From: a virus
Virus record (IMG/VR): IMGVR_UViG_3300032893_000027
Coordinates: 11,367-75,366 of that record
Length of the DNA: 64,000 bases
Strand: one strand, 5' to 3'
The position numbers were made by a program, and so were the translations under genes. The notes under the pieces were generated by a model. That model worked only from the letters and a program-made list of their open reading frames with translations, ran no database searches and had not been told where the DNA came from. Of the stretch, positions 9,001-43,149 are shown piece after piece. The first letter of the stretch is position 1; each line of letters starts with the position of its first letter.

Positions 9001-9935
9001 AGCTGGTCGATTTGGCCTTCATGCAAGCCAGCGCTACCAGCAATGGCGGCTAGGTCCTTGTTGGTATATTGCTTGAGGTTCTTCTGGATCTCAGGGTTCG
9101 TCTCAGGCGAATTGTTCAGCGCCTGATCCATATGTTTGGCTATGTCGTCAAGCTTGCCAACACCCTCCTTGGTGAAAGCCTCCTTAACGGGCTTAAATGC
9201 GGGCAGGCCGAACATCCCGGCCTTGGCGACGTCACCCATTAGGGTGTCCGGATTGGCCCAGCTTGCCACATCCACGGCTTGGCCTAGCCCCGGACCGGTC
9301 CTTTCAGCCGTCTTCTGGGCCGTCCCAAAGGCCGCATTGATCGGGGTCATGGCTGGCATAGCCGCCCCAAGGGCCTCCTGTCCGAGTCCTAAGCCCCAGC
9401 GGAGGGGGTTATAGGTCTGGAAGTTCTCCTGTGCCTGCTTATGGAACCCATATGCAGCCTCATCGCTTTCGCGTACAGCCTCCTTCCAGTCCTTGCCCAG
9501 ATTGCGGAGTTTCTCTGGCAGCCTGCTGGGCTCAACATGGGGCTCGGCCTGCTGCCCTGCTGGAGCGCCGGAGATTGGAACCTGAGGTGGGACATTAGGC
9601 GTCTTGAGGTCGTCATTGAGGGGCCATGGATCGACGTCACCGCCGTCAGCAAAGCCCGCCGCCCTCAGGTCGAGATCCTTGTTCCCGAGGGCATCCCCCA
9701 TCGGGCTAAAACCAACCTCGCCGCTATTCGGGTAATACATGTTCATATGGAAAGGCGTCATGCTTTCCATTGGCTTCACGACAGGGCCTTCCGGGAAATA
9801 CAGGCTATCGTTGAATGGAGTAAATGCCTCCATCCTCCGGTCTTCGATGTTCGGAGACTTGCGGAAGTCATCCCCGCCCTGTGCCTTCTTGGCATACTTC
9901 CGGGCGACGTGGAGGGCGAGTTCCTTCTTAGCCAT
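6063..9935 (-). CDS. 1290-aa polyvalent virion protein: atypical kinase domain, ADP-ribosyltransferase-like domain, Cys-rich HiPIP-like insert and GG-motif C-terminal domain
   Basis: Kinase-like GSNKGGVY..YYMK..NENVAAALY..WLANHDVVG..DN..LDLGG (~8205-8845). ART-PolyVal-like AFFA..ARKQGYDMI..QYAVINPEILRAPRAAFDP (~6910-7340). CANCKYL..C..YCCDLY (~6268-6395). GRTDKIP..GSYVLPAD and GGEFIIHPDVV in the C-terminus. Confidence 0.65.
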   Translation of the reverse strand: MAKKELALHVARKYAKKAQGGDDFRKSPNIEDRRMEAFTPFNDSLYFPEGPVVKPMESMTPFHMNMYYPNSGEVGFSPMGDALGNKDLDLRAAGFADGGDVDPWPLNDDLKTPNVPPQVPISGAPAGQQAEPHVEPSRLPEKLRNLGKDWKEAVRESDEAAYGFHKQAQENFQTYNPLRWGLGLGQEALGAAMPAMTPINAAFGTAQKTAERTGPGLGQAVDVASWANPDTLMGDVAKAGMFGLPAFKPVKEAFTKEGVGKLDDIAKHMDQALNNSPETNPEIQKNLKQYTNKDLAAIAGSAGLHEGQIDQLKSHMSPLQQKGFDTYYKKHFGEPPKAPSAGPDLKPVDEMHQPSNFGGYVHPDQLTQVGPQMGSNKGGVYQDKNGVKYYMKEGQTPAHVVNENVAAALYDLAGVPTLKYHHDPTGNHIITRMEKLEKNNASQLDDQEMYEAQHDFGVHAWLANHDVVGTGGDNLGVINGKVTPLDLGGALEYRAKGAPKGKIFGNEVGELQSMRGLDPKVHAPDAAAMFGGMSDEHVADSLKKVINIPDEKIRQVVDNFHGDPKLADKLIARKNYLKDWAEKHGGEPPAKGWESAGYGHDPDFGSFDEHGVEHAPQHEPMSEKELEEYFKNAPAGPEGWKDELYSHTPEEYGDLVGLPKGKETPFEQALSKALASKWPDSGGYKDIPSHPKDTQWLDQFEYNKTYNLPKKVFGGIDSGKIIAALSKYHIGDNPNMTAFGLKAKLLAKELGKLDSEKFLKSMSYYNIKPHQIENVLSYFPEKNIDDMKGLMSEHLGQAGYNVPITSQNLPHAQKKKMREDAIKASLEPKSWKSYAPPEGHTEGKEWINKIDWGKNKPAELEKKGWATKHYVWKGGEFENPVPGGGYPHEIIDPSQKVWERAFFAAPNPEVAAHGYGPLGHPYIAREHKFARVDYGPLAKQLGHQIHPDGGATWSKTLFHDIIEEARKQGYDMIALEGVHDVGSHGLKHTQYAVINPEILRAPRAAFDPKKMHLRHPLAGFAGLPAGAGIYQYLSGGDNDQKYATGGKVKHKHPQIDENPQEHEFINFSKGGLIDSHIPGRTDKIPMRVPPGSYVLPADIPSALGEGNTKAGSEILKKMFTHSAYGLPPPNIHGRAFQYPHQLHFSHVPIPHQKARGGKVEPATVLPANHQLGMKVPKGGSMCANCKYLASSTTCGNQGFVKWHGKPELPEPANEYCCDLYEHGKTEKKADGGKTDHVPIIAAGGEFIIHPDVVKAIGGGDMKQGHKTLDKFVINTRKHHIETLKKLKPPK

Positions 9936-10359
9936 GGATGATGAACTTCAACCCGAAGCCTCCCGAGGCGGGGCGCCATCCCAAATATGCCTCCAGCCAG
10001 CCATTCCAATAGGAAATGAACGGAGCCCATCCGTTGATGAGTGACCACTTAAAACCGGTTATATTACCGGGAACATCTCGCCAAGTTGTGGCAAGGACAG
10101 GATAAGATCCTGTCACCGTGTAAGTCTGTCCTTCAAAGCCAATAATATAACCGACAAAATTGGCACAAGGATTCCGAAACCACCACAGCAGATTACGGAT
10201 GAACTGGTTGGATATATTCGGTAGATAAGGAAGCCCATTGTTGATTAAAGGCGCAGTCCATGTTGACTTGCTGCCGCCACACATCAGCCACCACAGGGGG
10301 TTTAGAAGCATCCCCCATGTCGGTATATCCTGCGGTGTGACAGTCACAGTCTCAATCAT
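9928..10359 (-). CDS. Hypothetical Trp-rich protein
   Basis: Translationally coupled on both sides; WWFRNP and YLGWR motifs. Confidence 0.55.
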   Translation of the reverse strand: MIETVTVTPQDIPTWGMLLNPLWWLMCGGSKSTWTAPLINNGLPYLPNISNQFIRNLLWWFRNPCANFVGYIIGFEGQTYTVTGSYPVLATTWRDVPGNITGFKWSLINGWAPFISYWNGWLEAYLGWRPASGGFGLKFIIHG

Positions 10360-11282
10360 TAGCCAGCCCGTATCATCATCAAGCCGCCGATATAGGATGG
10401 CTGGAGGTTGGTAATTGCTGTATTGGCGCTTCCGGGATTGACGGTGATGCCGGTGACGGCCGAGTTGGTGGTAACCCCCGTATTGGTGATCGTGAAAAAT
10501 GCGGACGCCGCAACGGAAGCCTCACCATTAACTGTACCGTTATTACTAATGGTGTGAGTATGGCCGGGATCGGTGATTGGGATGCTTGCAGGCAAGTTGC
10601 TTGATCCGAGAGTGTTGGACTGAGCGCCGCCAATACCGCCGACATTAGGAGTGTTAAAGCCAGTCGCCGCCGTAGAAATCAATCCAGCACCCTGATCGAG
10701 GGCGGCGCGGACCCTACCTTTTGAATTCGGAAGCGTCGTGCCACCCAAGACATTGACAAGCTGTGGATAAGTAGCAGACGAAAAGGTGGTGCCGTCACAA
10801 TTTAAGTAAGGAGGCACAGTGCAGCCCGAAATCCAATTAGGGACAGATGACCCCGCGTAATCCCAATACGACCCAATGCGGTCCAGTCCCGTGTATCTGA
10901 TGTTGGTGCCGTCATTGGTTACAAATATCGTTTCATTGGGAACAGCACAGACGACTTGTCCACCAGCTACAGTCGTGGCCAGCGTAATGGTAAAGGCGCT
11001 ACTGCCTGTGCAGGTATGATAGATCTCGTAGTTCTTCTTGAAAGAAGTTGGGAAGGTGATAGTCACACTTCCCGTCAACGTCGAGTTAAAGATGATCTGC
11101 CTGCTCTGGAACTGGCCTGCATTCAGGATGACGTTGGAGTTATTTAATCCGATAGTAGTGATGTTGCCGACAACAAGATCAATCAACGTCGTGTTGTTGT
11201 TGACGGGGGTATCCCACGTTCCGGTATCGTCACCACGGGCCGGTTCTTCAAGCTGGATGTTTGGCGTAAAGGTAGAGACCAT
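10359..11282 (-). CDS. Tail fibre protein with tail-collar domain
   Basis: PPYLNCDGTTFSSATYPQL..TLPNSKGRV collar motif, DPGHTH and TNLQP; N-terminal anchor GTWDTPVNNN. Confidence 0.75.
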   Translation of the reverse strand: MVSTFTPNIQLEEPARGDDTGTWDTPVNNNTTLIDLVVGNITTIGLNNSNVILNAGQFQSRQIIFNSTLTGSVTITFPTSFKKNYEIYHTCTGSSAFTITLATTVAGGQVVCAVPNETIFVTNDGTNIRYTGLDRIGSYWDYAGSSVPNWISGCTVPPYLNCDGTTFSSATYPQLVNVLGGTTLPNSKGRVRAALDQGAGLISTAATGFNTPNVGGIGGAQSNTLGSSNLPASIPITDPGHTHTISNNGTVNGEASVAASAFFTITNTGVTTNSAVTGITVNPGSANTAITNLQPSYIGGLMMIRAG

Positions 11283-11289
11283 CTTTCAC

Positions 11290-11517
11290 CTACTGCGGAT
11301 AGATTGGAGTCTTGCCGGTGAACCCGGAACTGGTCGTCACAAGCATGAAGTAAGATGCGGTAGACGATTGAAAGACAATCGTTCCGTTGGTAGCAGGCGC
11401 AGATGTTGATGTAGATGTAATCTGCGGAAAGATGGTCCCGATTTTGGTCGTGAGGTTATTGATGGCCGCCACGCCATCCCTAAGAGAGGACCAGATGCTG
11501 TCAAAGCCGATTGCCAT
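11290..11517 (-). CDS. Small virion protein (Ser/Thr-rich)
   Basis: Coupled to the upstream nozzle gene. Confidence 0.55.
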   Translation of the reverse strand: MAIGFDSIWSSLRDGVAAINNLTTKIGTIFPQITSTSTSAPATNGTIVFQSSTASYFMLVTTSSGFTGKTPIYPQ

Positions 11518-13595
11518 TAGCGTCTCCCCGACGCGGCAAAGCGGAATCGTATCCGGCCAAGCCGCCAGAATTCACTATTCGCATTGCTCTGCACAAGAAC
11601 GGACATGAGACGATTTCTTATCCGAACATTAATGTATTCAGTGGCTTGAGTGACGGTATAGGGTCCGTAGACCGTAGGCGTATCCCCCGGATAATTTACC
11701 CCATAGAAGGTAATATTAATAGATGCATTCTGGGAACCCGACTTGAGGCCCCAGATGAAGTCAGGGATCACGAGGTCAATAAAGGGGATATCCTCACCCT
11801 CGGTAATGGCCCAATAGCCGCTCTGAAAGGTGGGGAGGCCCGTCCCGGTAATGGAGGTACCCTCCTCATGCTGGTAGATTTGCCCAGTGGAATCGGCCCC
11901 AATGGGGTTGCCGACGATGGACACGTCTGTCCAAGCTGTCCGGTTTAATGTTCCATAATCCCATTCATATTCATTGCCAATGATGCGAACCTTGGCGTAG
12001 CTGTCGTTTTCCCCAGTCGACATGGCGGAGGGGTAGAACCATGCAATTTCATTGAAAATTGAGTTAACGGCCACCCTGATTTTGGCGACATAGGCGGGAT
12101 TGGTGGAGATGTTTTGGAAGACTTGATCCCAGATCGGGCACGGCATTGGCGCAACACCGTTAGCCCCAAGGGTAAAGAAGTTATTATTGGCCATCCAAAA
12201 GGGGTTTCCCCCTAAAATTCCGCAAGCGTGAGAGCTAATCCAACCACAACCAGAACCAATGCGAGTAAAGTTAAAAATAACAGTACCGCCAACATAGTTC
12301 ATATTCCAGACGTCGATGTCGGTTGAGATCAGGGCAAACGAGGGGCATTGTATTCCACCTACGATGTAGGACCCTGTGGGGATATGGAATGAACCAGCCG
12401 TGGTCTGGTTGGAGACCGTCCAATTGGTGTAGTCGCCCTGATTCGACCAGCGGACGATCAGAGGGTCCTGAACCCCGGATGCCTGACAGGACCGCCACAG
12501 CACCAGAATCTGTTGCGGCATTGCTACAAAAAGACCACCATTAAAGAATGGAGCTTGATTCACTACTTGAGCATTGGTGAATCCAAAATCAGGAGCCCAT
12601 GCATAGACAGGCCCATCTTTAGGACATCCGAGAATGATTTCGCCCCAATTGTCTTGGGTCCAGTCCGTAGTGGTAATGGGGGTTCCCCCAACGACCGAAA
12701 TACCGCCCGTGGTGCCCCCGAAGCCTGTCGTAGTGCCACCACTCCCGCCAAAGGCCCCACCACCAAAACCCAAGCCGGAAGCGGGAGCACCCTGCGTCAC
12801 GTAATACACAAGCTGGGCGAGGCTCGAATTCATGGTCGCGGTAGCCGTGGTGCTGGCTTGAACCGATAAATTGATCGTAAAATTGGTTGAGTCGATTATA
12901 GAGGCAACCTGATACTTGCCTTGAATGATCGACGGGATACTAGTTCCGACTGTGGTTGGTGCGATAAACTGTTCAAAAAGGCCCGGTATCACCGAGTAGC
13001 CATTGAATGGCATAGTGACGGTCACAGTTTGAGATCCTGACGAGATCGCAAACTTGGGCAGAATGCCGCTGGATGCTACCGAGAAAGATGAATTGACTGC
13101 CGCCGTAATCGTGTAAGAACCGGTTGAGAGTACGGTCGTAATGGGGTAGGCACCATTCAGCAGGATGCTGCCGACCGAGACCGGGGTATTAAAGAAGACT
13201 GTATTGTTCTTGGAGGCATTGGCGTTGGCATCAACGACGGTCACGACGTTGCTGCTGGCCGTCACCGAGAAATTTGGCGTTGGATTCGTCGTCGTGGTCT
13301 GCGGCGTAATGACCTGATTGGTGATAGTGCTGTTACTACTATTAACGGTCAGGGCATTCCAACTTTGGGTGGCTGCGGCCCCTAGATGTTGGACACCATT
13401 AATATCTTGCCACGGATGTAGATCGCGGATGGTCGAGTTAATAGTAAATCCGGCCCAGTTAGCCCACCCACCATAGGTCTCGATCAGCCCATCCCGATAG
13501 CGGATAAGCTGTGACGCCGAGACCCCCGCCTCGTTGAGAGACAGGGTTTTAACGGTATCAACACCCGGACGTAATGTAACAGCAGCCCAAGGCAT
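11517..13595 (-). CDS. Tail nozzle / DNA stabilisation protein (P22 gp10-like beta-propeller)
   Basis: 692 aa; QDPLIVRWSNQ..WT, NEIAWFYPS, WDYGTLNRTAW, C-terminal WRLGRIRF..GRR. Confidence 0.75.
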   Translation of the reverse strand: MPWAAVTLRPGVDTVKTLSLNEAGVSASQLIRYRDGLIETYGGWANWAGFTINSTIRDLHPWQDINGVQHLGAAATQSWNALTVNSSNSTITNQVITPQTTTTNPTPNFSVTASSNVVTVVDANANASKNNTVFFNTPVSVGSILLNGAYPITTVLSTGSYTITAAVNSSFSVASSGILPKFAISSGSQTVTVTMPFNGYSVIPGLFEQFIAPTTVGTSIPSIIQGKYQVASIIDSTNFTINLSVQASTTATATMNSSLAQLVYYVTQGAPASGLGFGGGAFGGSGGTTTGFGGTTGGISVVGGTPITTTDWTQDNWGEIILGCPKDGPVYAWAPDFGFTNAQVVNQAPFFNGGLFVAMPQQILVLWRSCQASGVQDPLIVRWSNQGDYTNWTVSNQTTAGSFHIPTGSYIVGGIQCPSFALISTDIDVWNMNYVGGTVIFNFTRIGSGCGWISSHACGILGGNPFWMANNNFFTLGANGVAPMPCPIWDQVFQNISTNPAYVAKIRVAVNSIFNEIAWFYPSAMSTGENDSYAKVRIIGNEYEWDYGTLNRTAWTDVSIVGNPIGADSTGQIYQHEEGTSITGTGLPTFQSGYWAITEGEDIPFIDLVIPDFIWGLKSGSQNASINITFYGVNYPGDTPTVYGPYTVTQATEYINVRIRNRLMSVLVQSNANSEFWRLGRIRFRFAASGRR

Positions 13596-13596
13596 C

Positions 13597-14310
13597 TTAC
13601 ATCCTCGGCGGCGAAGCTATGGGATTGGGCGTCATAGGCGTCCAACCCTGACTCTGGTACCGCTTGCGAAGCTCCTCAGCGTTGGCAGAAGCAAACAGAA
13701 GTTTGTATTGCGATTCCCAAGACCCCGGCATCTGTGGGTCATCTGCCTGAGCGCCATAGTTCCGCATATAACCAGCCGCGAACACCATTGATGCCGCGAT
13801 AAATAAATCGGGCAGGTTCTGCGTCAGGAAGGTTGATGAATTGCTTGTAGATAGAGGAGTTGGTCGTATTGTTCCAACAACTTCAACAGTATAGGATTGA
13901 TCTGGTGCAGGCCCCACAATGTAAGTGGTATTATTAAGAGGAGCACAATACAAAGGGACGCCAGTTGCTGTGGATGTAGGCCACGCAAAGTCAAGGAATT
14001 CCTTAGTAGTAGGCGTAAGTGGATTACGAGTCGCGTTAGAAGATCCAGCGCCATCCGGGGTCCAGACGTTGATTTGTTCAACAACAACAAATGACCCTTG
14101 ATCTGTCGGCAAAGTAAAGCTCCTGATCGCCGATGATAGACTCACAGTCGAATCAGAGATACGGGTCGCTTGCAGATCCAACTCACGATAAATCCGTTGT
14201 TCGGCATAGTCGATCATGCCCGGAAGCATCGTGTTGAAATTGGTATCTGCTGTCGATGTGACCATCAGATTGGTGATTTGACTGACGTAGCTGCCGTAAT
14301 TAAGACTCAC
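13597..14310 (-). CDS. Head-tail adaptor / tail tubular protein A-like
   Basis: IDYAEQRIYREL, GPAPDQSYTVE, PDLFIAASM motifs. Confidence 0.7.
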   Translation of the reverse strand: MSLNYGSYVSQITNLMVTSTADTNFNTMLPGMIDYAEQRIYRELDLQATRISDSTVSLSSAIRSFTLPTDQGSFVVVEQINVWTPDGAGSSNATRNPLTPTTKEFLDFAWPTSTATGVPLYCAPLNNTTYIVGPAPDQSYTVEVVGTIRPTPLSTSNSSTFLTQNLPDLFIAASMVFAAGYMRNYGAQADDPQMPGSWESQYKLLFASANAEELRKRYQSQGWTPMTPNPIASPPRM

Positions 14311-15112
14311 CTTGGCCTCCGATTTCGCCTACAGAGAATTGGACCTGAGCGACTGCGACATAATGGGAGCCATCGCCTAAGAAGGCAACCCTATGGAATT
14401 GAGCCAGCGAGTTCGTCATTGTGGAAGTAATGGTGACGCCAATTGACTCGCCTGCTGTGCCAGCCGTAGTGCCGCTCGCTATCGTCGTCCACGCCCCGTA
14501 GGCTGGGGTATCAACTGGGGAATATTGAATCACGTAGGTGGTTGCTGAGGGCAGGAAGCTTCTATCTATCGGCGCATAAATGCTGACCGAGCTTAATGTA
14601 TGGGTAATAACCGGAGGCTTTAGGCTGGAAGGCATAGACAGGTTGGAGACGTTGCCCTGCCAGTTAATACCGACGTAGCTGCCGTAGCTGGAGTTAATGG
14701 TCGAAGTTAGGTCGGTGGCACTTTGCCACGATTGCTTGTTGATAACACCGTCGAAGGGGGCGTTAATTCCAGCGGCTCCGACCATGCTGCCAATGCGGTT
14801 GCCGTACTGTGGCTGAAAAAAGTTTGCAGAAACTCCCTGAGCCGACAAGGGGGCGTCGTCAAGGACGTACTTTTCCGAGCGTGGGTTGAGGACGGGAATT
14901 GGATCAGGCGGAATGACAAAGGTTTTAATGTTCGGTTGGGGTTTATCCAAGCACGGCGGACAGACAAAGATTCTCAGATTCTGAAGCCGAGGTCCAGTCC
15001 ATTCGTACTGCCACTTCAACATGTTCAATTGCCAAATCTGGCCGCAGCGGTCACAGACCGCCTTGGCCCTCGGATTGGCAGGATCGACTTGATAGTGGCT
15101 ACGAGGTCGCAT
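14300..15112 (-). CDS. Virion-associated protein with N-terminal Zn-ribbon and beta-sandwich C-terminus
   Basis: CDRCG..VCPPCLDKPQP..DPIPVLNPR; C-terminal YVIQYS..WTTIASG. Confidence 0.6.
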   Translation of the reverse strand: MRPRSHYQVDPANPRAKAVCDRCGQIWQLNMLKWQYEWTGPRLQNLRIFVCPPCLDKPQPNIKTFVIPPDPIPVLNPRSEKYVLDDAPLSAQGVSANFFQPQYGNRIGSMVGAAGINAPFDGVINKQSWQSATDLTSTINSSYGSYVGINWQGNVSNLSMPSSLKPPVITHTLSSVSIYAPIDRSFLPSATTYVIQYSPVDTPAYGAWTTIASGTTAGTAGESIGVTITSTMTNSLAQFHRVAFLGDGSHYVAVAQVQFSVGEIGGQGES

Positions 15113-15825
15113 TAGTCAAAGTAACTCAGCAGGCCCGGCGCAATATACATCGGGACGTTTTCCACGTTCTGACGAGCCGCTATTTGCCACGCTTCTTCGG
15201 CGTCCATCTTCCGCTTATCTTCAAGATCAGGTGCATAAACACGAGCCAAGCGGTGGGCAAGACCAGCGGCCATAGCATCGAGCCAGAGATAGGGTACCTC
15301 CATGTTCGTGCCATTCGCCGCCAGAGCATCCTGTACTTGGCGAACCCGATAGTAATACAGCGTATAAGGGCCATTGCCGTCAGGGACCGGATAGAGGGTG
15401 ATCGTGGGTGAGATTTGCCGATTGAACCAGTACTGAGTCGGTTGGGCTTGCACCAGCTTATTGGGCAGCGCAGCATACTCAGTCTGGCTAATTGGGAAGA
15501 TCAGACGGTCCGTCTGCGTCGTATTGACGCCGGGGGTCGTCCGGATGAAGGCATTGGTAATCATGACGGTTTCAGCCGGAACCGAATAGGTGGCCGTACC
15601 TTGGGTCAAAGGAACCGCTTGAAGATCAACATCCCAAAGATTAGGCTGGAGGTTTGAGAATTTGACCTGCAACAGGTTCAACTCAATGATCGCCTGCTGA
15701 AGGTGGGACTGAAGGATCTCAGTAGGGCGTACCCGGATGCGTTGAAAGGCCGTGATGATGAGATCACCAGCCGAAGGCGCAAAGTTATAGGTTCCGGAAT
15801 AGTTCTGGCTGGTGGTGAAGACCAT
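15112..15825 (-). CDS. Head-tail adaptor/connector protein
   Basis: ISQTEYAALPNK..QPTQYWFNRQ..LYPVPD; lies between the head and tail genes. Confidence 0.7.
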   Translation of the reverse strand: MVFTTSQNYSGTYNFAPSAGDLIITAFQRIRVRPTEILQSHLQQAIIELNLLQVKFSNLQPNLWDVDLQAVPLTQGTATYSVPAETVMITNAFIRTTPGVNTTQTDRLIFPISQTEYAALPNKLVQAQPTQYWFNRQISPTITLYPVPDGNGPYTLYYYRVRQVQDALAANGTNMEVPYLWLDAMAAGLAHRLARVYAPDLEDKRKMDAEEAWQIAARQNVENVPMYIAPGLLSYFD

Positions 15826-16139
15826 TAGTTTGACTTTCTCTGAATGATCCTAAGATATCCTATAGCAACCTGTACAGAACTAGGGGCCGTCGTTAACCAC
15901 GTAGCAAGCCCAAGAGACGCTGAAGTAGAAGACCAAGTTCCGGTATAAAAGCTCCCATTAAGCGCCAGACTAACGGTGTCCACCTGCGTAGCATTAGAGG
16001 TATTAGTATAAGTTACCGTCATCCCCGGAGACGATGGCACGGCCAATTGTCCATTGACGTCGAAGAACTCTATCACAAAATTGGCTGAGTTCCCCTGTTC
16101 AATGTTGAACGGTCCACTTTGCGCCGTTAGAACGGTCAT
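15825..16139 (-). CDS. Small Ig-like/BppU-N-like virion protein
   Basis: IEQGNSANFVIEFFD beta-rich pattern. Confidence 0.5.
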   Translation of the reverse strand: MTVLTAQSGPFNIEQGNSANFVIEFFDVNGQLAVPSSPGMTVTYTNTSNATQVDTVSLALNGSFYTGTWSSTSASLGLATWLTTAPSSVQVAIGYLRIIQRKSN

Positions 16140-16789
16140 TATACTTCCCTCACCGAAGTTGGGCTAAATCCACCCACTTCCGTAATAGAAACCCTAGCGG
16201 TTACAGCCGGTTGAGACTGTATCACATTTATAGCAAATATGGCGGAATCTGAATCTATCTCCTTTGTGATAAAGAAACCACGAATGAAGTCTTGGGCAGA
16301 TTTGAAGAAATCGGGGTGTGTATAGGGCGGAAGCCCCCTCTTAAACCGAACTGGTTCCGAAAGCGGGCTATACCATCCCTGCAAGAAGATATTTGCGCTG
16401 GGGATGAACTTGGTATCTTGGGTCGCAAATGGGTGATATTGGGCACGGAGTCCCGGTTTGATTCGGACTGGTTCAGATAACCAGTTATAATATGCGAAGG
16501 AGACAACCGGCTTAATAGACCCATAAGCAAGGACGGGCTGCTGGGTGACAGATAATCCCGGCTTAGCCAGAACGCTCGGGATTGACCAAGCCTGATGCCA
16601 TTTGTCTTCAAGGACAATGGGCTTAAGAAAGTCTGTCGTGACATTGGAAGGCTGAAGATAGACAGCCAGCCCTTGTTTAAAGCGGACTGGTTCCGACCAA
16701 GGAAAGTGCCATTTATCTTCAGAGATTACCTCGCCGCCAACGAAGACCGGCTGGGTAATGACTTGATATTGAATGTATGAATAGGGCAC
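16139..16789 (-). CDS. Trp-rich repeat protein (EDKWH..WSEPVR units)
   Basis: About 4 repeats; shares its C-terminal motif with 20426..22963. Confidence 0.7.
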   Translation of the reverse strand: MPYSYIQYQVITQPVFVGGEVISEDKWHFPWSEPVRFKQGLAVYLQPSNVTTDFLKPIVLEDKWHQAWSIPSVLAKPGLSVTQQPVLAYGSIKPVVSFAYYNWLSEPVRIKPGLRAQYHPFATQDTKFIPSANIFLQGWYSPLSEPVRFKRGLPPYTHPDFFKSAQDFIRGFFITKEIDSDSAIFAINVIQSQPAVTARVSITEVGGFSPTSVREV

Positions 16790-18334: not shown

Positions 18335-18604
18335 CTAGATCCCATAAGAACGCAGCGCCCTATCTCGTGCCTCCCAGCGTTCCAACTTCTTCTCGAATGG
18401 AACACATGGCCCATTGCAGCAAGGACCGCAAATATCCTTATCGCAGAGAGTGCAATGCCCCCCGAGATCTTCCGGAGAGCATTTGGGGAAAATGTGAACT
18501 ACGCTATTGCAATGACTGCAAGTGAAGGTACGGACCTCAAGGCGAGTTCCGTACTCATCAAAGGAATAGGCGTATCCACCATCTCGGAGATACTTGCCAA
18601 ACAC
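18335..18604 (-). CDS. Cys-rich zinc-finger protein
   Basis: CSHC..CTLC..CGPCC..C. Confidence 0.65.
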   Translation of the reverse strand: MFGKYLRDGGYAYSFDEYGTRLEVRTFTCSHCNSVVHIFPKCSPEDLGGHCTLCDKDICGPCCNGPCVPFEKKLERWEARDRALRSYGI

Positions 18605-18606
18605 GA

Positions 18607-19149
18607 TTACTGCTCTTGGAAAAGAACCGTCATCGTGGCGGTACCGGTATAAGAACCAGACCGGACCTGACAGAGCAATGCGCCACCGGCCGAAGCCGAA
18701 GAAACTGCCGGATAGACAATCTCAGAGCCCGGTGCCGCCACCCAGCGATACGAAGCACGCTGGTTGACACCAACATACCAAGGCTGCTGTTGCTGAGTCG
18801 CAAACAGTGCCGAGGAGGTTGCCGAGGCGTTGACTGTGACAAAGGCTGAGAAGCCTGCGTCAGCGCCGTCTAAAGCAAACAAGCTAGAGCCAGAAGAGAT
18901 TGAACCAACCCAAGCAGGGGAGGAGTTGGCGGTTGCACGTTGCACAGCCCACTCAACGAAGTTGTCCGCTGGAGTACCGTTGGTGCCGACCAGAAGGTCG
19001 TAAACCTTGCCGCGCCGAAGACCAGTATAGGTCGGGGCGTTGACAAAGGAACCAGTGCTCGCCGCGATAACGACAAGCGGAGTATAAGTCGTCGCCACCG
19101 CATTTTGAGTCGCGATGTTAGTGGAATTTACAACACCGTAGTTTGCCAC
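18607..19149 (-). CDS. Virion structural protein (Ser/Thr-rich beta protein)
   Basis: NQRASYRWVAAPGSEIV; beta-strand-rich composition. Confidence 0.55.
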   Translation of the reverse strand: MANYGVVNSTNIATQNAVATTYTPLVVIAASTGSFVNAPTYTGLRRGKVYDLLVGTNGTPADNFVEWAVQRATANSSPAWVGSISSGSSLFALDGADAGFSAFVTVNASATSSALFATQQQQPWYVGVNQRASYRWVAAPGSEIVYPAVSSASAGGALLCQVRSGSYTGTATMTVLFQEQ

Positions 19150-19161
19150 CTGTTAGCCCCC

Positions 19162-20040
19162 TTAAGGAATGCTATTGTTTTGGACCCCGCCAAAGATTGC
19201 CTCAAAGTAGTCGAGGTCCTCTAGCGCCCCTTCGAGATAGGTCTTCTGAGTCTGAGCACTATTCAACTGATGCGTCAGGTCATTAACCCTCTGTTTGAGT
19301 TCGACCTTGCGAGATAGGATCTTACGCCCGAATTGCGTAACTTCCGAAAACCCGTAAAGCCCCGGTGGCTGCATAATATCCGACTCATAGGGAGCCATCA
19401 TCTTTATGCCCCTGCGCTTAGCCTCCATGAAGAAGAAATAAGCGCCCGGTCGTTGGAGAATATACTCGTCTCGGGAAGCCATGTCTATCCCGAAAAGAGC
19501 GATCTCCTTCGCCCCCTTCATCATAGCAAATGCCATCATCCAAGCAAAGGATGAAGTGAAGAAGTAGGGACCGAATTCTGCCACCAATTCCTTATAAGGT
19601 AAAGGGGTGGCATTAGGAACAAGTGACTGATCCTGCATGTAAATCGGGAAGGTTTGTTGCCTCAGCCACTGGATATAGGGCTCCCCATAATGCCGGTTCT
19701 CGGGCCATAGCAGGTTGCCATGGATCTCAAACCATGCATCAGCCCGAGGAATTACCCCCATATTACCGGGGGAGCAGGACCAGATGGTCCAGCTAGGGTC
19801 ATTGTAGGGGGCCAACATACGAGAGGATGGGGCCGTCCCGATACAGGCCACCTTGAGATAGGGGGCCGGTTCGGCTGGGGACTCTGGCTTAATTTCCTCG
19901 GCCACCTTCTGCTGGATATAGTCCGGCTTCCAGCCCCCCTCACCGAGGGGTTCATGTTCTGCGACAACATGGAGTGGGGCGTCGATAGCGATCTTTCCTT
20001 CTTTGGCGGTGTCATTAAAAGTCTTGGTAAGCTTAGGCAT
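19162..20040 (-). CDS. Putative nonulosonic-acid glycosyltransferase (Maf / GT29 / GT42 sialyltransferase-like fold) with C-terminal coiled coil
   Basis: N-terminal KVACIGTAPS (cf. ..IIG.GPS) and FTSSFAWMMAFAMMKGAKEIALFGIDM (cf. TS...A...A...G...I.L.G.D of CstII/Maf). Confidence 0.6.
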   Translation of the reverse strand: MPKLTKTFNDTAKEGKIAIDAPLHVVAEHEPLGEGGWKPDYIQQKVAEEIKPESPAEPAPYLKVACIGTAPSSRMLAPYNDPSWTIWSCSPGNMGVIPRADAWFEIHGNLLWPENRHYGEPYIQWLRQQTFPIYMQDQSLVPNATPLPYKELVAEFGPYFFTSSFAWMMAFAMMKGAKEIALFGIDMASRDEYILQRPGAYFFFMEAKRRGIKMMAPYESDIMQPPGLYGFSEVTQFGRKILSRKVELKQRVNDLTHQLNSAQTQKTYLEGALEDLDYFEAIFGGVQNNSIP

Positions 20041-20426
20041 TACGATCCTGTTATTTGGGCGGTCAGCAATTGTACGGCCTGACCCGTTTGAATCAGGGTA
20101 TTGTTGAGACCGTTTGAAATGGTGATATCTGCCCCTGACAACGGAATGCCGACAGTCAAGCCAGATACGACAATATTGCCACTAAAGTCCTCTATGACTG
20201 CGGTGGTTACGGTGCCAGTCCCGGCGGCTGCCGAGTCTGTCAATGGAGTATTAAAGGTTAATACACCTCCAGATGCTGATCCAGAGGGGGTCTGTAAAGT
20301 AATTGTGGATACTGGGGTACCACCGGCCAAAAGAATAAGTTTTCCGGCGCCGCCACCTCCGTCAATGGTGGAAACGACCCCTTGGAGGCGGGCATTTATA
20401 CAAGTTGTAGAATATACGGGGGGCAT
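20040..20426 (-). CDS. Virion structural protein
   Basis: LQTPSGSASGGVLTF..DSAAAGTGT pattern of phage fibre-associated proteins. Confidence 0.55.
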   Translation of the reverse strand: MPPVYSTTCINARLQGVVSTIDGGGGAGKLILLAGGTPVSTITLQTPSGSASGGVLTFNTPLTDSAAAGTGTVTTAVIEDFSGNIVVSGLTVGIPLSGADITISNGLNNTLIQTGQAVQLLTAQITGS

Positions 20427-22963
20427 TAGGAGGTCAGCCTTCCGATTTCAAAGATGGATACAATAGCCTTTGCCGCCGGAACCGTCGTAACCGGGACGAC
20501 AGACGGCGTTATATTAATAGCAAATATAGCTCTGTCTGTATCAATCTCAGTCGTTGCCATTCTAGCAACCACGGTTTGTAGGGCAATGGTCCCCGGATAG
20601 AAGGCCGCAACCGATTGTAGCTCCGTCCTGATCCCACGACGGTAGGTCGGACCAGACAAGCCTTGGAACCAAGCCAGCGGGGGCGAGACGTTGATCTGCT
20701 GGAGGAAGGCTAGATTAGGCTGTGCTGCGGCTTGCAGACTGATCTTGGCCCTTGGGACCTCAGCGAAGGGCTCAAACCATGATAGTGACGGGGCCGCAGG
20801 CTGGACAGGAACAAACCCAACACTGGCCTGCTCAGCCGCTAATAGACCCGGCTTGGGTTTTGGAACTTCCGCAAACGGTTCAAACCATGAATCTGGATTC
20901 GGAACATAGACGGCTGGGTCAAGGGCAAGGAACTGTTGACCACCTGCCTGAAGACCGAGCTTAGCCTTGGGGACTTCGGCATAAGACTGCCACCAGCCGT
21001 CCAGCTTAGCTGGGAATACGGCAGGATCGAAGGCAAGGAACTGCTGGCTGGCGGCCTGAAGCGCCAGCTTGGCCTTCGGCACCTCAGCAAACGGTTGATA
21101 CCAGCCAATGGTATCGGTTGCCCGATCCCTAACCCAAGCCAGATTGGACTGATCTTCGACCCGCAGACCAAGTTTGGTCCGAACCGGTTCCGACCAAGCC
21201 TGATGCCATCTGTCCTCAGTAACCGTCTCCGGGAACTGTTGCGACTCGGACTGGGCAATAAACTGCTGGTACTGAGGTCCAAGACCCGGCTTCTGCCTGA
21301 CCGGATCAGTCCACGCATAGTGCCATTTATCCTCGAAGATGTTCTCTCCGGTAAATGGCTGGGGATCAAAGAACGGTTCGGGCTGCTGGCAGGCCGCCAG
21401 ATTGCGGGTTCTGACCGGTTCAGACCATGCCTGATGCCATTTATCTTCCGATACGATCTCAGGGAATTGCTGAGATTCTGATTGTGCAATGAACTGCTGA
21501 GATGCTCCATCCCAACGGCGCCGCGTTGGGTCAAGCCAAGCAATGAACCAACTGTCAGCGTTTACCTGAGTGGTTACGACTGGCGTGAAAGCCGTGGTTG
21601 ATTGCAGCGCAACATTGGTCAGACGGCGCGTAGGTTCAGATAGCGGCTGAAACCAACGGAACTCTCTTGCCGTCTCTAGCGGTGAATATGGTTCTGGTTG
21701 AGCTAGTTGAGGCCCAAGACCGGGCTTGACCCTAACTGGATCAGACCACGGTTCGTGCCAGCGGTCCTCGGTAACAGTTTCTGGGAACTGTTGCGACTCC
21801 GAGAAGAACTCATACTGAGTGGCATAGTTAAAATTCTTTGTTCGATAGGGGTCAACCCAAGAGACAAACCAGCTATCTGCAAAGATATTGGCGGTGGTAA
21901 CGACTGGGGTGAATGCTGTCGTGGATTGTAGAGCGGCATTAATAAACCGCCGAACAGGGTCCACCCACGGTTGGAACCAACGGTATTCTCGTGCAGTCTC
22001 AAACGGCGTGTAGGGTTCAGGCTGAGCCCACGGCGGACCTATGCCAACCCTGCGGGTTGGATCAAGCCATTGTCGCCACCAGCTATCCAGCTTGGCTGGG
22101 ATCGGCGGGGAGCCAAAAGCAGTAAATGGCCCTTGCTTGGCCCCTATATCTGGCTTGGTTCTGACTGGCTCAGAGAGAGGTTGATACCAGCGATACTCCC
22201 TTGCCGTTTCTTGGATCGGATCAGTCTTGGCCTGATACTGGATGGTCTGATTGACCAGCAGCGCCGTATCTACGCTATACTCAATAGCGGAACTGGCAGC
22301 ACCGCCCGATGGGGAAATCTCGATGCCAAGAGATACAACCGTATCCGCAACGGCTAAGTTCCAAGTAAAGGTATAGGGAGACGATACTGGGTTTTGTGCA
22401 TACTGACCGTCAGTGGTGATCTGTGTGCCTTCGGCCTGTCTGTACCAAAGGGTATCACTACGCGAATTAAGCACCGTAGTCCCGGATTCGCACATCACAC
22501 CGAGGGCATAATTGGTGCCGGGATTGCTTAGCGTAATGGCAACTGTGGCCGTACTCGTACCAGCCCCGCCTGCGGTCTGATCATTTGAGTTAAAATTGGT
22601 AAATGCAGCAGCATCCGACGTCTGGTTGACGCCGGTAAATGAGATAGCATTGACGGTATAGCGGGAGGCCGTTGTCCAGCTTACGCTAAGAGTTTTGTTG
22701 CCGGGAGTTGGGGCACGTAGACCAAATAATAGTAGATCACCGGCAAAGGCGTTGGTAATACGCCCCAACTGGGTCATCGTCTGGTTGGTACCTCCACTAT
22801 CCCAGACCACACTAAAGCCAGTGGAGGATGTGCCGTTGAGGTTAACGGCAACGATCAGCGCGGCATTGGCACCCGATCCAACCGTGATTCCGGAATAGGT
22901 AAAGCTCGAAACCGAAACGGTTCCTGAGGCCGCTGCGCCTACTGCGTCTAAGACAACTGCCAT
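20426..22963 (-). CDS. 845-aa protein: N-terminal beta domain plus a long array of Trp-rich repeats
   Basis: More than 12 units of W[HFY]..[WL]SEPVR / WF.PFAEVP. Confidence 0.75.
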   Translation of the reverse strand: MAVVLDAVGAAASGTVSVSSFTYSGITVGSGANAALIVAVNLNGTSSTGFSVVWDSGGTNQTMTQLGRITNAFAGDLLLFGLRAPTPGNKTLSVSWTTASRYTVNAISFTGVNQTSDAAAFTNFNSNDQTAGGAGTSTATVAITLSNPGTNYALGVMCESGTTVLNSRSDTLWYRQAEGTQITTDGQYAQNPVSSPYTFTWNLAVADTVVSLGIEISPSGGAASSAIEYSVDTALLVNQTIQYQAKTDPIQETAREYRWYQPLSEPVRTKPDIGAKQGPFTAFGSPPIPAKLDSWWRQWLDPTRRVGIGPPWAQPEPYTPFETAREYRWFQPWVDPVRRFINAALQSTTAFTPVVTTANIFADSWFVSWVDPYRTKNFNYATQYEFFSESQQFPETVTEDRWHEPWSDPVRVKPGLGPQLAQPEPYSPLETAREFRWFQPLSEPTRRLTNVALQSTTAFTPVVTTQVNADSWFIAWLDPTRRRWDGASQQFIAQSESQQFPEIVSEDKWHQAWSEPVRTRNLAACQQPEPFFDPQPFTGENIFEDKWHYAWTDPVRQKPGLGPQYQQFIAQSESQQFPETVTEDRWHQAWSEPVRTKLGLRVEDQSNLAWVRDRATDTIGWYQPFAEVPKAKLALQAASQQFLAFDPAVFPAKLDGWWQSYAEVPKAKLGLQAGGQQFLALDPAVYVPNPDSWFEPFAEVPKPKPGLLAAEQASVGFVPVQPAAPSLSWFEPFAEVPRAKISLQAAAQPNLAFLQQINVSPPLAWFQGLSGPTYRRGIRTELQSVAAFYPGTIALQTVVARMATTEIDTDRAIFAINITPSVVPVTTVPAAKAIVSIFEIGRLTS
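20750..22230 (-). repeat. Intragenic coding repeats (ESQQFPE.V.EDRWH..WSEPVR; ETAREYRWFQP; STTAFTPVVTT; FAEVPK)
   Basis: Repeats are visible in both protein and DNA. Confidence 0.8.
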
Positions 22964-22964
22964 C

Positions 22965-23216
22965 CTAATACCCCACTATATTTCGCTTGAAATACAGTCC
23001 AAGGGTATGGACAGGAACAACGACAGCGGTAGAGGCTATCGTGGTGATTGGCGTTGGGTAATAGGCTATGAACTGCTGCAATGCAGCATTAAGAAAGAAC
23101 TTCTTAATGTTAGGTTCAGACCACGGCTCATGCCAGCGGTCTTCGGTAACGGTTTCCGGAAACTGACTTGAAGTTAATACCGGTTCGACTTTACCGGGAT
23201 ATAATGTCCTAGTCAT
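22965..23216 (-). CDS. Single-unit Trp-rich repeat protein
   Basis: SQFPETVTEDRWHEPWSEP is nearly identical to a unit in the 845-aa protein. Confidence 0.65.
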   Translation of the reverse strand: MTRTLYPGKVEPVLTSSQFPETVTEDRWHEPWSEPNIKKFFLNAALQQFIAYYPTPITTIASTAVVVPVHTLGLYFKRNIVGY

Positions 23217-25097: not shown

Positions 25098-25496
25098 TTA
25101 CCAGCCCTCACCTTGGATGACTTTCATTACAAGAGGACCAGCCGTAAGAGCCGTGCTATTGAGCCTCACGGCAGCAATAGGACTGAGCAGACTGACAGTC
25201 AAACCTGCGGCTGGGTCAAGATTGCTGGAGGCAAAGAGCGAACCTGAACTGGTGTTAACGCTGGTATCAGCCCAAGCACTGCTGAGGTTCTGCCAATAGG
25301 CCAGTGAAGTCCCGCCGACAAGGTTCACATCGTCCAGAGTATACTGGATATTATAAAAGATAGACGAACCAGAGTTCGTAGCCGTCACAACCACGGTCGT
25401 CGGACTTCCGCCGCGCCAATCCAAGGCACAGACAGTAGAGGCCCCCGGTGTTGAGGAGTTGGCCGTACAGGAAAGGCTGGTCGTAAAATATGTCAT
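25098..25496 (-). CDS. Virion structural protein (paralogue of 26057..26392)
   Basis: IQYTLDD..W..SPIAAVRLNST versus VSLDDP..W..SPVAQVRINST. Confidence 0.6.
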   Translation of the reverse strand: MTYFTTSLSCTANSSTPGASTVCALDWRGGSPTTVVVTATNSGSSIFYNIQYTLDDVNLVGGTSLAYWQNLSSAWADTSVNTSSGSLFASSNLDPAAGLTVSLLSPIAAVRLNSTALTAGPLVMKVIQGEGW

Positions 25497-25505
25497 TAGT
25501 ACAGC

Positions 25506-25718
25506 CTACTTCGGACGGAACTTGGCGAACGTCAGGGCTAGACGTGCCCTCCGGCCGACAGTGCCGGAGGAGTTCTTGTGCTTCTCAGCGAAGGCATGGG
25601 TGGACATTCCAGCCCGGTGGGCAGCTTGCCGCAAAGCGCCCTTGTGCTTCACGGCGTGCTGCATCCAGTGACCGACCCCACCGCCGGATGAGTAACCGTC
25701 AGGGCCGGTTATTTTGGG
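25506..25718 (-). CDS. Basic extension probably reached by a -1 frameshift from 25709..26044
   Basis: The -1 frame reads PKITGPDGYSSGGGVGHWMQHAVKHKGALR..GRRARLALTFAKFRPK*; slippery C CCA AAA sits directly before the stop. Confidence 0.55.
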   Translation of the reverse strand, partial: PKITGPDGYSSGGGVGHWMQHAVKHKGALRQAAHRAGMSTHAFAEKHKNSSGTVGRRARLALTFAKFRPK

Positions 25719-26044
25719 CTGCCAGTCCCGTGAACACCCTTGGGCAGATGTGCCTTGGGACCCTCAGCCGGGTTGCCGCCATTGCCAGTATGGGCCGCAG
25801 ACCAAGGAGAGCCCTTCATATCGGCGCCTTCATGGATCTTGCTGGCCTTCACCGAGCCACCACGAGCCTTCTTGTCGAGGCGATGCTTGCCCTTCTTGCC
25901 AGAAGCCTTGCCCCCACGCTTCATCTCGTGGGCTTCCTTCATGACCTTGGAGCCCTGTGCGTTATACTCTGGCTTGTCAGAGTCACGCTTCGGAGTAACG
26001 CCGCCGCCCTTGGCGTGCTTCTGGACGTTATGACGATGAGCCAT
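25709..26044 (-). CDS. Basic Lys/His-rich internal protein with xxGG motifs
   Basis: HAKGGGV, MKRGGKA, KARGGSV; paralogous to 30781..31476. Confidence 0.65.
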   Translation of the reverse strand: MAHRHNVQKHAKGGGVTPKRDSDKPEYNAQGSKVMKEAHEMKRGGKASGKKGKHRLDKKARGGSVKASKIHEGADMKGSPWSAAHTGNGGNPAEGPKAHLPKGVHGTGSPK

Positions 26045-31477: not shown

Positions 31478-31696
31478 TTACTTCTTTCCAGCTTGACTAC
31501 CGGCAGGCTTACCGGCAGGGATGGGACCAATGCTCTCCCGTGCCGGGAGGGTTAGGGGATCAAGATCTTGGTTCTGGTAATAGGCCATATCAGCAGCCTT
31601 ATCACCCGGCCATTTATAATGGTCGGCATGACCAACAATCTTTTGCATCTTGGTAAACCGAGATTTCTTAACGTCGCCGTGATGATGATGTGCCAT
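31478..31696 (-). CDS. Small His-rich hypothetical protein
   Basis: Coupled to the portal stop codon. Confidence 0.55.
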   Translation of the reverse strand: MAHHHHGDVKKSRFTKMQKIVGHADHYKWPGDKAADMAYYQNQDLDPLTLPARESIGPIPAGKPAGSQAGKK

Positions 31697-34414: not shown

Positions 34415-36109
34415 TTACGACCAGTATAGAGGCTGGGACAAGTTCCGACGATCATATGCCATTTCGTCATCTGATGCCACTCTATACTCTTCCTTACGTA
34501 GGGCAAAGCCCATATCTCTCAACCACCTAAGCGCTTGAGAGGTACTGTCTACCAGATCGTCATGGCTACCTTTGGGGAAGATACCGCACTGGCGAATCAC
34601 CTTATCGGCCCAACTTCTATCCGGCGCATAGACCATTCCGTCCCGGAACAAATGTTCAATCGAGTTCACCCGTGCCCACTTGTCGCCATACTTCTTGGGG
34701 TCGACTTGTTCCACCGACAGCCTTCCGGTTCCCCGGAGCAGCCGACTGAGTTCCTGCCCGACTGACTGGCCGCTGCCCTTGGCCTCGATTAACAATCTAT
34801 CCACAGGGAATGTGGGCCATGTCGCCCCCTCCTGAGGGATACAGGTATCCATCACCTTCTGTAACAAGTCCGTGAATTGGAGCCGCTCCTCCCATGCATA
34901 GAGCAACATGATCTTGGGGTGGTCAATCATGGGCTTATTTTCGATAAACAGCTTGTGGCGACCCCTGAGGTCCGGAACCGGTTCTATTAGTTCCGATTCT
35001 TCCCGCCATATCCCCCATACCGTGAGGGCCGAGGGATCGTTCTCATCCTTCTCCGTAAAGGCCGGGTCCAAGGAAGCTACGACGAATTCGAATGGCGGAA
35101 GCCTTGGCATCTTATCCGTGTCCCAAAGCTGCCAATATTCCTCCTTAATAATGGCACCACCACGAGGAACCGGATACTGCTGATACTGACCAGCCCACGC
35201 ATACGGACCCTTATCTCGTTCCATATTCACGCAAACTTGATCAGTGAACCGCTCGGGCCATGCTAGTTCTCCGTCCTCTTCTCTGGGGTCCTCCCAGATA
35301 TTCTCGACCTCTTGAATCTCTCCAGTCTCCGGGTTAGCGAGTTCCTCTGTTCCTAAGACCGTAACACAATGACGGGCAGGATCATGCCGCATCGGTATCA
35401 TAAGGTGGGTGTAACCCATCTCACGAGAGACGGCGACACCGGATACGTCGTCCTCGTGAAGTCTTTGTTGAATAATAACAATTGCGGATTCTTGGGGGTT
35501 ATTGAGACGGTCTGGAACGACTTCCGTAAACCACATGTTCGTTGTGTATCGAACCTGTTCCGACTCCATCTCCATTGTGTTGTTGGGGTCGTCAATGATG
35601 AACCTGTCGCCGCGTTCACCCACCCCGATACCACTAACGGAGGTAGCGAGCTTCCAACCAGTCTTGTCGTTGGCGAACTTGATTTTGGTAAATTGTTCGT
35701 TACTAATGTGGAACCGATTTCCCCACAGCTTTTGATACCGGTCGCTAATGACAATGTTGCGACAACGCATATTATCGCGTTCCGTCAAGTGATTCGAGTA
35801 AGAAGCGCAAACATATCTGGTCCACGGCATATTTCGGGGACCCCACTCCCACGCTGGCCAGAACACGTCAGTCATTAACGACTTCGTGAAGCCGGGTGGA
35901 ACATTGATGAGGAGACGTTTGATATGGCCGTGGGTGACAGCTTCGAGGTGCTCCGCAATGGCTTCTATAGCCCAACCTCTTATAAAGGGGATAGCGGGCT
36001 CGACTACGGGCCAAACATACTCGGCAAATTCTATAAGTCTGCTTTCGGCGCGAACCTTCTCCATACGCTTTGCGATTTCGGCGGCAGCCTTAAGGACAAT
36101 AGTGTGCAT
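34415..36109 (-). CDS. terL: Terminase large subunit
   Basis: Walker A INVPPGFTKS, Walker B FIIDDP, QQRLHEDD, YQQ.P, RNase H-like SLDPAF and HDDLVDS. Confidence 0.92.
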   Translation of the reverse strand: MHTIVLKAAAEIAKRMEKVRAESRLIEFAEYVWPVVEPAIPFIRGWAIEAIAEHLEAVTHGHIKRLLINVPPGFTKSLMTDVFWPAWEWGPRNMPWTRYVCASYSNHLTERDNMRCRNIVISDRYQKLWGNRFHISNEQFTKIKFANDKTGWKLATSVSGIGVGERGDRFIIDDPNNTMEMESEQVRYTTNMWFTEVVPDRLNNPQESAIVIIQQRLHEDDVSGVAVSREMGYTHLMIPMRHDPARHCVTVLGTEELANPETGEIQEVENIWEDPREEDGELAWPERFTDQVCVNMERDKGPYAWAGQYQQYPVPRGGAIIKEEYWQLWDTDKMPRLPPFEFVVASLDPAFTEKDENDPSALTVWGIWREESELIEPVPDLRGRHKLFIENKPMIDHPKIMLLYAWEERLQFTDLLQKVMDTCIPQEGATWPTFPVDRLLIEAKGSGQSVGQELSRLLRGTGRLSVEQVDPKKYGDKWARVNSIEHLFRDGMVYAPDRSWADKVIRQCGIFPKGSHDDLVDSTSQALRWLRDMGFALRKEEYRVASDDEMAYDRRNLSQPLYWS

Positions 36110-40922: not shown

Positions 40923-40930
40923 GAGGCAAT

Positions 40931-43147: not shown

Positions 43148-43149
43148 CC

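Follow-up and report, generated by a model that had tools for sequence, protein, structure and literature searches.

The IMG/VR virus record IMGVR_UViG_3300032893_000027 is a complete phage genome of 75,366 bp with direct terminal repeats, of which bases 11367–75366, a stretch of 64,000 nucleotides referred to here as the window, were analysed. An open reading frame (ORF) on the minus strand, at 19162–20040, encodes a protein of 292 residues with the working name GT292. This protein represents an unnamed, phage-restricted family in the fold class of Maf and the GT42 sialyltransferases, and is likely to be a nonulosonate transferase, whatever its acceptor. As the gene travels with phage genes making a sialic-acid-like sugar, the phage probably coats its own particle with that sugar. 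The full reading, in which GT292 transfers a cytidine monophosphate (CMP)-activated pseudaminic acid derivative made by the phage to virion proteins, is given a probability of roughly one half. Fold, conserved motifs and linkage to CMP-nonulosonate genes are shown by the analysis, and a donor, catalytic residues, a time of expression and an acceptor can be proposed from them.

GT292 matches no family in Pfam, NCBIfam or PHROGs, its sole match being a weak coiled-coil hit at the C-terminus, and hmmscan against Pfam-A with E values up to 1 returned no family, PF06002 included, for the protein or for 61 relatives. Its regions, with AlphaFold confidence given as the predicted local distance difference test score (pLDDT), are these:

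19162–20040, minus strand: GT292, sialyltransferase/Maf-fold protein of no Pfam, NCBIfam or PHROG family; pLDDT 86.8.
19861–20040, minus strand: N-terminal stretch of about 60 residues, variable and predicted to be disordered (pLDDT 42–63), missing from most relatives.
19351–19860, minus strand: putative catalytic core, residues 61–230, with the G68-T-A-P-S72 loop, W-F-E105-I-H107, T-S-S163, G184-I-D186, E192-Y193, Q196, S220 and Y229.
19192–19335, minus strand: C-terminal helix of 48 residues, 236–283, assigned by DSSP on the model and giving coiled-coil matches only.

The two motifs quoted in the initial annotation of this DNA are both present, KVACIGTAPSS as residues 62–72 and FTSSFAWMMAFAMMKGAKEIALFGIDM as residues 161–187. 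Judged by the alignment, they are not due to chance: G68, S163, G184 and D186 show little or no variation in the 61 relatives, which share 32–59% identity with the query. The invariant positions are G68, H107, G184, E192, Q196 and Y229, and S73, E105, S163, D186, Y193 and S220 are nearly invariant. Most relatives begin at query residue 62, which suggests that the preceding 60 residues form a disordered extension specific to the lineage; G271 and a C-terminal helix of similar length are retained. The AlphaFold model, built on the alignment of the same relatives, has a pLDDT of at least 94 over residues 61–280 and consists of an alpha/beta core (61–230) followed by the helix of residues 236–283, with no membrane segment predicted. 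The coiled coil noted downstream of the motifs corresponds to this long helix (pLDDT 94–97 up to residue 280), although what is predicted is a single helix with generic coiled-coil matches only.

A Foldseek search of PDB with the model returned GT42 sialyltransferases as its top 16 matches (CstII, 1ro7, E value 4.7e-7; Cst-I; the Pasteurella enzyme 9c08), and GT29 ST8SiaIII, thiamine pyrophosphokinase, MptE and Maf ranked after them. The predicted fold is related to those of Maf, CstII and Cst-I and, more weakly, of GT29, as had been proposed from the motifs. Identity in the structural alignments amounts to 18–23% for GT42, 12% for Maf and 7–13% for the pyrophosphokinase branch. The GT42 structures used for comparison were those of CstII and Cst-I of Campylobacter jejuni and of the lipooligosaccharide sialyltransferase of Pasteurella multocida (PDB 1ro7, 2p2v/2p56 and 9c08). 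When the profile of the GT292 family was compared with all PDB sequences, eight GT42 sialyltransferases came first with an E value of only about 1, and the profile alignment placed S163...G184-I-D186 on S132...G152-I-D154 of CstII. The structural alignment starts at residue 62 of the model and residue 2 of CstII, and places G68-T-A-P-S72 on the G-N-G-P-S loop of CstII. GT292 displays both the sialyltransferase-type modified GT-A (Rossmann-like) fold and the nucleotide-binding motifs of GT42.

The protein departs from GT42 in several ways. Between D186 and the helix that follows, GT292 has about 30 residues fewer than CstII, and the invariant H107 lies elsewhere. A lid of about 30 residues bearing the catalytic His188 appears to be missing from GT292, in which the invariant E105, H107, E192 and Q196 are prominent instead; the role of His188 is cited in PMC4202792, and the catalytic lid histidine of Cst-I is His202. 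GT292 is encoded by a phage beside virion genes, its presumed donor is of the pseudaminic type rather than N-acetylneuraminic acid, and its presumed acceptor is a protein rather than lipooligosaccharide. It ends in a long helix, whereas CstII carries a C-terminal tail for membrane association.

The comparison with the motility-associated factors (Maf), which O-glycosylate flagellin with nonulosonates and carry a PF01973 domain, drew on Magnetospirillum Maf (PDB 5mu5), CbMaf, GkMaf and Shewanella Maf-1 and Maf-2. Mutagenesis has identified as required an acidic residue, a serine and an aspartate or asparagine located 23 residues after the serine, namely D272/S334/D357 in CbMaf and D285/S356/N379 in GkMaf, and the residues E324 and D415 in Magnetospirillum Maf (bioRxiv 10.1101/2020.06.03.131540). 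The spacing from S163 to D186 in GT292 is likewise 23 residues, as between S334 and D357 of CbMaf and S356 and N379 of GkMaf, and E105 precedes S163 at a distance comparable to that of the Maf acid, an equivalence by order and spacing only. GT292 has the fold of the Maf central domain and, with the acid so equated, its required residues. Among 12 bacterial proteins above the PF01973 cut-off (open frames of 610–1030 residues), nine carry a threonine exactly 23 residues ahead of G-Q-D, and the consensus includes an A-G-P-S loop. GT292 itself does not match PF01973, and hhalign against the 12 bacterial Maf domains aligned 23 columns around G-x-D with a probability of 0.35%, which is not significant. 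With 292 residues, a core and one helix, it is far smaller than Maf (about 600–750 residues) and is devoid of the flanking domains, tetratricopeptide repeat (TPR) domain or GlfM partner that confer acceptor specificity on Maf; the presumed acceptor is a virion protein, as opposed to flagellin. GT292 thus has the fold and active-site layout of GT42 and Maf, yet belongs to neither family.

A further difference from Maf is that the GT292 family is almost absent from bacterial genomes. HMMER searches of 1.84 billion representatives retrieved 3,142 clusters at 50% identity with an E value of 0.001 or lower, and 1,772 at 1e-10 or lower. Bacterial occurrence comes to four contigs of metagenome-assembled genomes (MAGs) among 185,579 species genomes, and the ESM Atlas neighbours of GT292 are viral 'hypothetical protein' clusters throughout: the family is almost entirely confined to phages. 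A single GenBank phage record contains a member, that of Microcystis phage Mvi-Yong1342-1 (PP496355.1, locus L001, 7902–8705). This homologue is 28% identical, retains all invariant residues and lies immediately ahead of terS and terL; its genome contains neither NeuB nor a CMP-sugar synthetase. It was deposited as a 'type 11 methyltransferase', a label that the fold evidence does not support.

Two side observations concern the extent of the family. The 52-kb genome G055 (the record behind locus L203) harbours a second, weaker copy at 25110–25721 (E value 2e-17), 11 kb from the main copy (E value 6e-87). A Pyrinomonadaceae MAG (G073; loci L233 and L235) contains sub-threshold matches to PF01973, MptE-like, with E values of 1e-5 and 9e-4, together with a distant GT292 homologue; one of these matches is possibly on the same contig as the homologue, and the matching sequences may bridge the phage family and PF01973.

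The gene is linked to phage-borne CMP-nonulosonate genes. Among 25 complete genomes selected via GT292 (IMG/VR records at least 90% complete), 23 encode a CMP-sugar synthetase and 21 encode NeuB. In the close set, with GT292 identities of 51–73% plus lineages at 43–46%, CTP_transf_3 is present in 17 of 17 genomes and NeuB in 16 of 17; the corresponding figures for the distant set (30–47% identity) are six and five of eight. These genomes span 44–94 kb and at least three portal classes: genomes with a weakly SU10-like portal, with a strongly SU10-like one, and with a T7-like connector but no detectable portal. The association also holds in the opposite direction, as 10 of 13 complete genomes selected only for a NeuB relative, and not previously seen, hold a member of the GT292 family (E values 1e-71 to 1e-95), in every case about 1.5–4 kb from NeuB. 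The background frequency of NeuB is three in 50,697 GenBank phage records. At one locus (L130) PseB, DegT, a CMP-transferase, a methyltransferase, an unknown gene, a HisF-like gene, NeuB, two unknown genes and the glycosyltransferase (GT) gene follow one another on a single strand, and at another (L075) a CMP-transferase, NeuB and PseB lie directly upstream of the GT gene on the same strand.

The association is not universal. Homologues with all invariant residues occur in complete genomes lacking both NeuB and a CMP-sugar synthetase, namely that of the Microcystis phage isolate and the genomes G030 and G033. In genome G027, terL is flanked by genes for a methyltransferase, a WbqC-like protein and a CMP-transferase; the GT gene is present, but neither PseB nor PseI is. 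This is a 44.8-kb phage of the SU10 type (locus L250, G027:C1:3000-13000), in which the GT gene lies elsewhere in the genome, and a homologue of the cell-cycle regulator GcrA hints at an alphaproteobacterial host. As a separate observation, NeuB matches in G008, G017, G018 and G034 (the records behind L022, L073, L079 and L144) are split, covering model positions 1–120 and about 171–235 within one frame of roughly 215–250 residues, and the frames of G018 and G034 carry one in-frame TGA; these are either shortened or divergent NeuB proteins or a decaying gene.

In the query phage the sugar genes form a plus-strand operon at 36313–44157 that starts head-to-head with terL and comprises:

36313–38863, plus strand: tailoring genes, namely a PseH-like GNAT acetyltransferase, a methyltransferase, a formyltransferase and a GFO/IDH/MocA oxidoreductase.
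38829–40922, plus strand: CMP-sugar synthetase (PseF-like) fused to a class-III aminotransferase, the presumed donor maker (PF02348, PF00202).
40886–41845, plus strand: PseB, inverting uridine diphosphate (UDP)-N-acetylglucosamine 4,6-dehydratase (TIGR03589, 409.7 bits against a cut-off of 407.75; PF02719).
41906–43147, plus strand: PseC-like aminotransferase (PF01041; best NCBIfam match TIGR03588 PseC, below cut-off).
43144–44157, plus strand: PseI, pseudaminic acid synthase (TIGR03586, 379 bits against a cut-off of 340.25; PF03102).

Since PseB and PseI score above the NCBI equivalog cut-offs, the donor would be of the pseudaminic type, and the product of the operon is inferred to be a CMP-activated sugar of this kind with extra tailoring. 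A scan of the larger ORFs in the 75-kb genome brought up no further glycosyltransferase family. The aminotransferase fused to the synthetase resembles glutamate-1-semialdehyde aminomutase; the fused frame, of about 670–740 residues, recurs in most related phages of 65–77 kb, and in 85-kb and T7-like lineages the CMP-sugar synthetase is a stand-alone protein of 190–290 residues.

The GT292 gene lies 17 kb from this operon, within an unbroken minus-strand array of late genes of about 36 kb that runs from terL through the portal, the capsid region and the adaptors to the tail genes. The genome is present in three wetland DNA metagenome runs, which may be its source. The features of the array that bear on GT292 are:

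34415–36109, minus strand: large terminase, terL.
31696–34407, minus strand: portal of the SU10 type.
20040–20426, minus strand: p128, virion structural protein of 128 residues (phrog_3758, E value 1.6e-5; serine plus threonine 25%).
18607–19149, minus strand: p180, predicted jelly-roll protein of 180 residues, rich in serine and threonine (21.7%); model all beta, pLDDT 86.9, pTM 0.83.
18335–18604, minus strand: p89cys, cysteine-rich protein of 89 residues, with an invariant CxHC...CxxC...CxxC...C pattern in its alignment and conserved synteny.
13597–15825, minus strand: two adaptors of the SU10 type.

The start codon of GT292 overlaps the stop codon of p128 (TAATG), so that the two genes are translationally coupled, and the downstream gene begins 12 nucleotides past the GT292 stop, behind a GGGGG run. 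Shuffled sequence contains promoter-like and terminator-like sites at least as often as the region around GT292. From its position the gene is inferred to be expressed late. Its placement between two virion genes, as first described, is sustained on the upstream side by the PHROG match of p128; on the downstream side p180 is a putative virion protein, which matches no family and is predicted to form a jelly roll of the viral type.

The immediate neighbourhood was surveyed by tblastn of window neighbour proteins against 147 loci and by clustering the ORFs within 3.5 kb of the GT gene. The query lineage keeps the order p128, GT, p180, p89cys while the flanking genes move, and it is only in this lineage that p128 retains its upstream position. 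The pair p180 and p89cys is more persistent: it follows the GT gene at most loci with a GT identity of 51–73% and is still found behind it in the 85-kb lineages, in which GT identity is down to 43–46% and similarity is no longer recognisable in any other structural gene. The p180 model resembles the capsid jelly rolls of small viruses weakly and uncharacterised Caudovirales proteins better (TM scores 0.57–0.66), some of the latter matches being domains within proteins of more than 1,000 residues. On the strength of this model, p180 is a candidate acceptor or virion surface protein. The cysteine pattern of p89cys suggests that it probably binds zinc, as the third member of the cassette and a partner of GT292. 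Serine and threonine make up 22% of p180 and 25% of p128, compared with 8–13% of the enzymes and 9% of GT292; such contents are common in phage surface proteins, and as a sign of acceptors they are weak evidence. A tryptophan-rich repeat protein, with units like EDRWH..WSEPVR, is encoded at 20426–22963, 16139–16789 and 22965–23216, all on the minus strand. The 845-residue repeat protein is upstream of the GT gene in the window and usually downstream in relatives, and would hence be a part of the module that is often rearranged.

A different arrangement prevails in distant lineages (L087–L142, about 30 loci, for example L109 at 9499–12387). Here p180 and p89cys are missing and the GT gene sits between terL and the gene for a conserved serine/threonine-rich protein of 155 residues that belongs to no known family; between this protein and p180 no homology is detectable (hhalign probability 5%). 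The sugar operon is located 2.6–7.6 kb upstream of the GT gene on the same strand. In L109 a gene for a fibre-like Gp80 protein intervenes between NeuB and the GT gene, and terL comes next after the latter.

These data allow a mechanism to be proposed. The donor would be the CMP-activated pseudaminic acid derivative produced by the operon, and GT292 would be translated from the late structural operon. The nucleotide sugar may be held between the G68-x-A-P-S72 loop, which follows the first strand, and the S163...G184-x-D186 motif, in the manner of CMP in CstII, with the acceptor hydroxyl activated by an invariant acid or histidine (E105/H107 or E192). The C-terminal helix could serve in oligomerization of the enzyme or in docking. 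The acceptors would most likely be serine or threonine residues of virion proteins that are exposed and are produced simultaneously with the enzyme, p180 being the first candidate and p89cys a possible specificity factor. A virion acceptor is suggested by the position of the gene and by the conserved cassette with jelly-roll and zinc-ribbon proteins.

Several observations would suit other readings. Identity in the structural alignments is highest to the glycan-acting GT42 enzymes (22–23%, versus 12% for Maf), GT292 has no acceptor-binding modules of the Maf TPR or GlfM type, and at the roughly 30 distant loci the GT gene is beside terL, outside the fibre and capsid block. In addition, PseG (TIGR03590) was detected in none of 36 complete phage genomes with Pse-type genes (query included; G000–G063 set), and co-occurrence and proximity to NeuB fit a pathway enzyme equally well.

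The first three of these points would suit an enzyme of the same chemistry, a CMP-nonulosonate transferase, acting on something other than the virion: a glycan of the host envelope, a lipid-linked intermediate, flagellin or another host or phage protein. Such a modification might serve to hide receptors and thereby save progeny from loss on debris. Such an acceptor appears rather unlikely, as the GT292 gene of the query lineage forms part of the operon of late structural genes, is translationally coupled to virion genes and is remote from the sugar operon; its conserved partners are jelly-roll and zinc-binding proteins rather than membrane or glycan-pathway genes, and the model is free of membrane segments.

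The absence of PseG raises another alternative, in which GT292 is a non-orthologous replacement for this enzyme, a UDP-sugar hydrolase with water as acceptor. As PseG is missing from all 36 genomes, linkage data alone do not separate a transferase from such a surrogate. The initial annotation had regarded GT292 as the transferase missing from the sugar operon: the two-way co-occurrence, the proximity in several lineages and the lack of any other glycosyltransferase family among the larger ORFs scanned uphold this view, but the missing enzyme could instead be the hydrolase. A surrogate role is nevertheless improbable. Intact homologues occur in the three genomes without NeuB and CMP-sugar synthetase mentioned above, the gene set of G027 is suited to retailoring, activating and transferring a sugar made by the host rather than to a PseG function, and the query gene is part of the structural operon, not of the sugar operon. 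GT292 has neither the sequence of PseG (TIGR03590) nor a GT-B fold. Three NeuB-positive genomes without the GT292 family are also without PseG, which suggests that the host may provide the enzyme. PseG would be supplied either by the host or by an unrecognized phage gene. Comparison of the unknown ORFs around PseI and NeuB yielded no PseG candidate; the 151-residue ORF that follows PseI (44154–44609) matches no family and is not similar to the unknown ORFs beside NeuB in L109 or L130.

On fold alone, GT292 could also be a pyrophosphokinase or another ATP-dependent enzyme of the branch that includes MptE, thiamine pyrophosphokinase and SteA. This is very improbable, given the lower alignment identity to that branch (7–13%, against 18–23% for GT42), sequence-level matches that involve GT42 only, and partners that are CMP-sugar genes, pterin and thiamine genes being absent from the contexts scanned. 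A non-catalytic assembly or scaffolding protein that has retained an old nucleotide-binding fold might be suspected, since head-completion genes surround the GT292 gene and assembly factors typically have a long helix such as the one at the C-terminus of GT292. This is scarcely credible for a gene that tracks sugar genes and conserves residues of the active-site type (G68, H107, S163, G184, D186, E192, Q196, Y229) at 30–60% identity. DNA was considered as a glycosylation target and rejected: the 75-kb genome encodes no thymidylate-synthase-like hydroxymethylase, TET/JBP dioxygenase or C5 cytosine methyltransferase, and an acceptor of this kind is unlikely in a genome without an enzyme making hydroxymethyl-pyrimidines.

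One further gene of the window may be mentioned. A protein of 254 residues (62510–63274, minus strand) shows a weak match to the GH19 chitinase class (E value 1.4e-5, at the cut-off) and is probably an endolysin.

Transfer of a phage-made sugar to the virion by GT292 would have precedents in other viruses. Glycosylation of mycobacteriophage virions has been described (Freeman et al. 2023, Cell Host Microbe, as cited in PMC12619734), and the capsids of chloroviruses and giant viruses are glycosylated by virus-encoded enzymes (PMC9614988). The common element is a virus-encoded glycosyltransferase among structural genes that acts, or in the case of GT292 would act, on proteins of the virus's own particle; giant viruses, like the query phage, also encode a sugar-nucleotide pathway. 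The mycobacteriophage and giant-virus systems employ classical GT-A or GT-B enzymes with hexose or aminosugar donors. In the literature searched, with most subscription journals outside coverage, there was no report of a nonulosonate or of an enzyme of the GT42/Maf fold on tailed-phage virions, nor any account of phages encoding a pseudaminic pathway together with a transferase. GT292 would represent a new family within an established type of enzyme, and its proposed role is plausible and would be new for tailed phages.

A broader proposition can be advanced only tentatively: many uncultivated tailed phages, with at least three portal types, might O-glycosylate their virion proteins with a phage-made or retailored pseudaminic acid derivative by means of a minimal transferase family that is absent from Pfam, NCBIfam, PHROGs and apparently CAZy. 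In the lineage considered here the enzyme would work together with the two other members of its cassette, a jelly-roll protein serving as acceptor and a zinc-binding protein conferring specificity, and the three genes would be the viral equivalent of Maf, GlfM and flagellin. If this is true, a very large group of environmental phages invests at least 8 kb in making and attaching a sialic-acid-like sugar, and the purpose of the coat comes into question: it might stabilize the particle, promote adhesion, help the phage to evade receptor-like decoys or grazers, or imitate the surface of the host. Glycobiology would gain a compact, soluble nonulosonate transferase with a core of about 230 residues and thousands of natural variants, and a name would be available for more than 3,000 sequence clusters that are now 'hypothetical' or, in the sole deposited isolate, mislabelled as a 'type 11 methyltransferase'.

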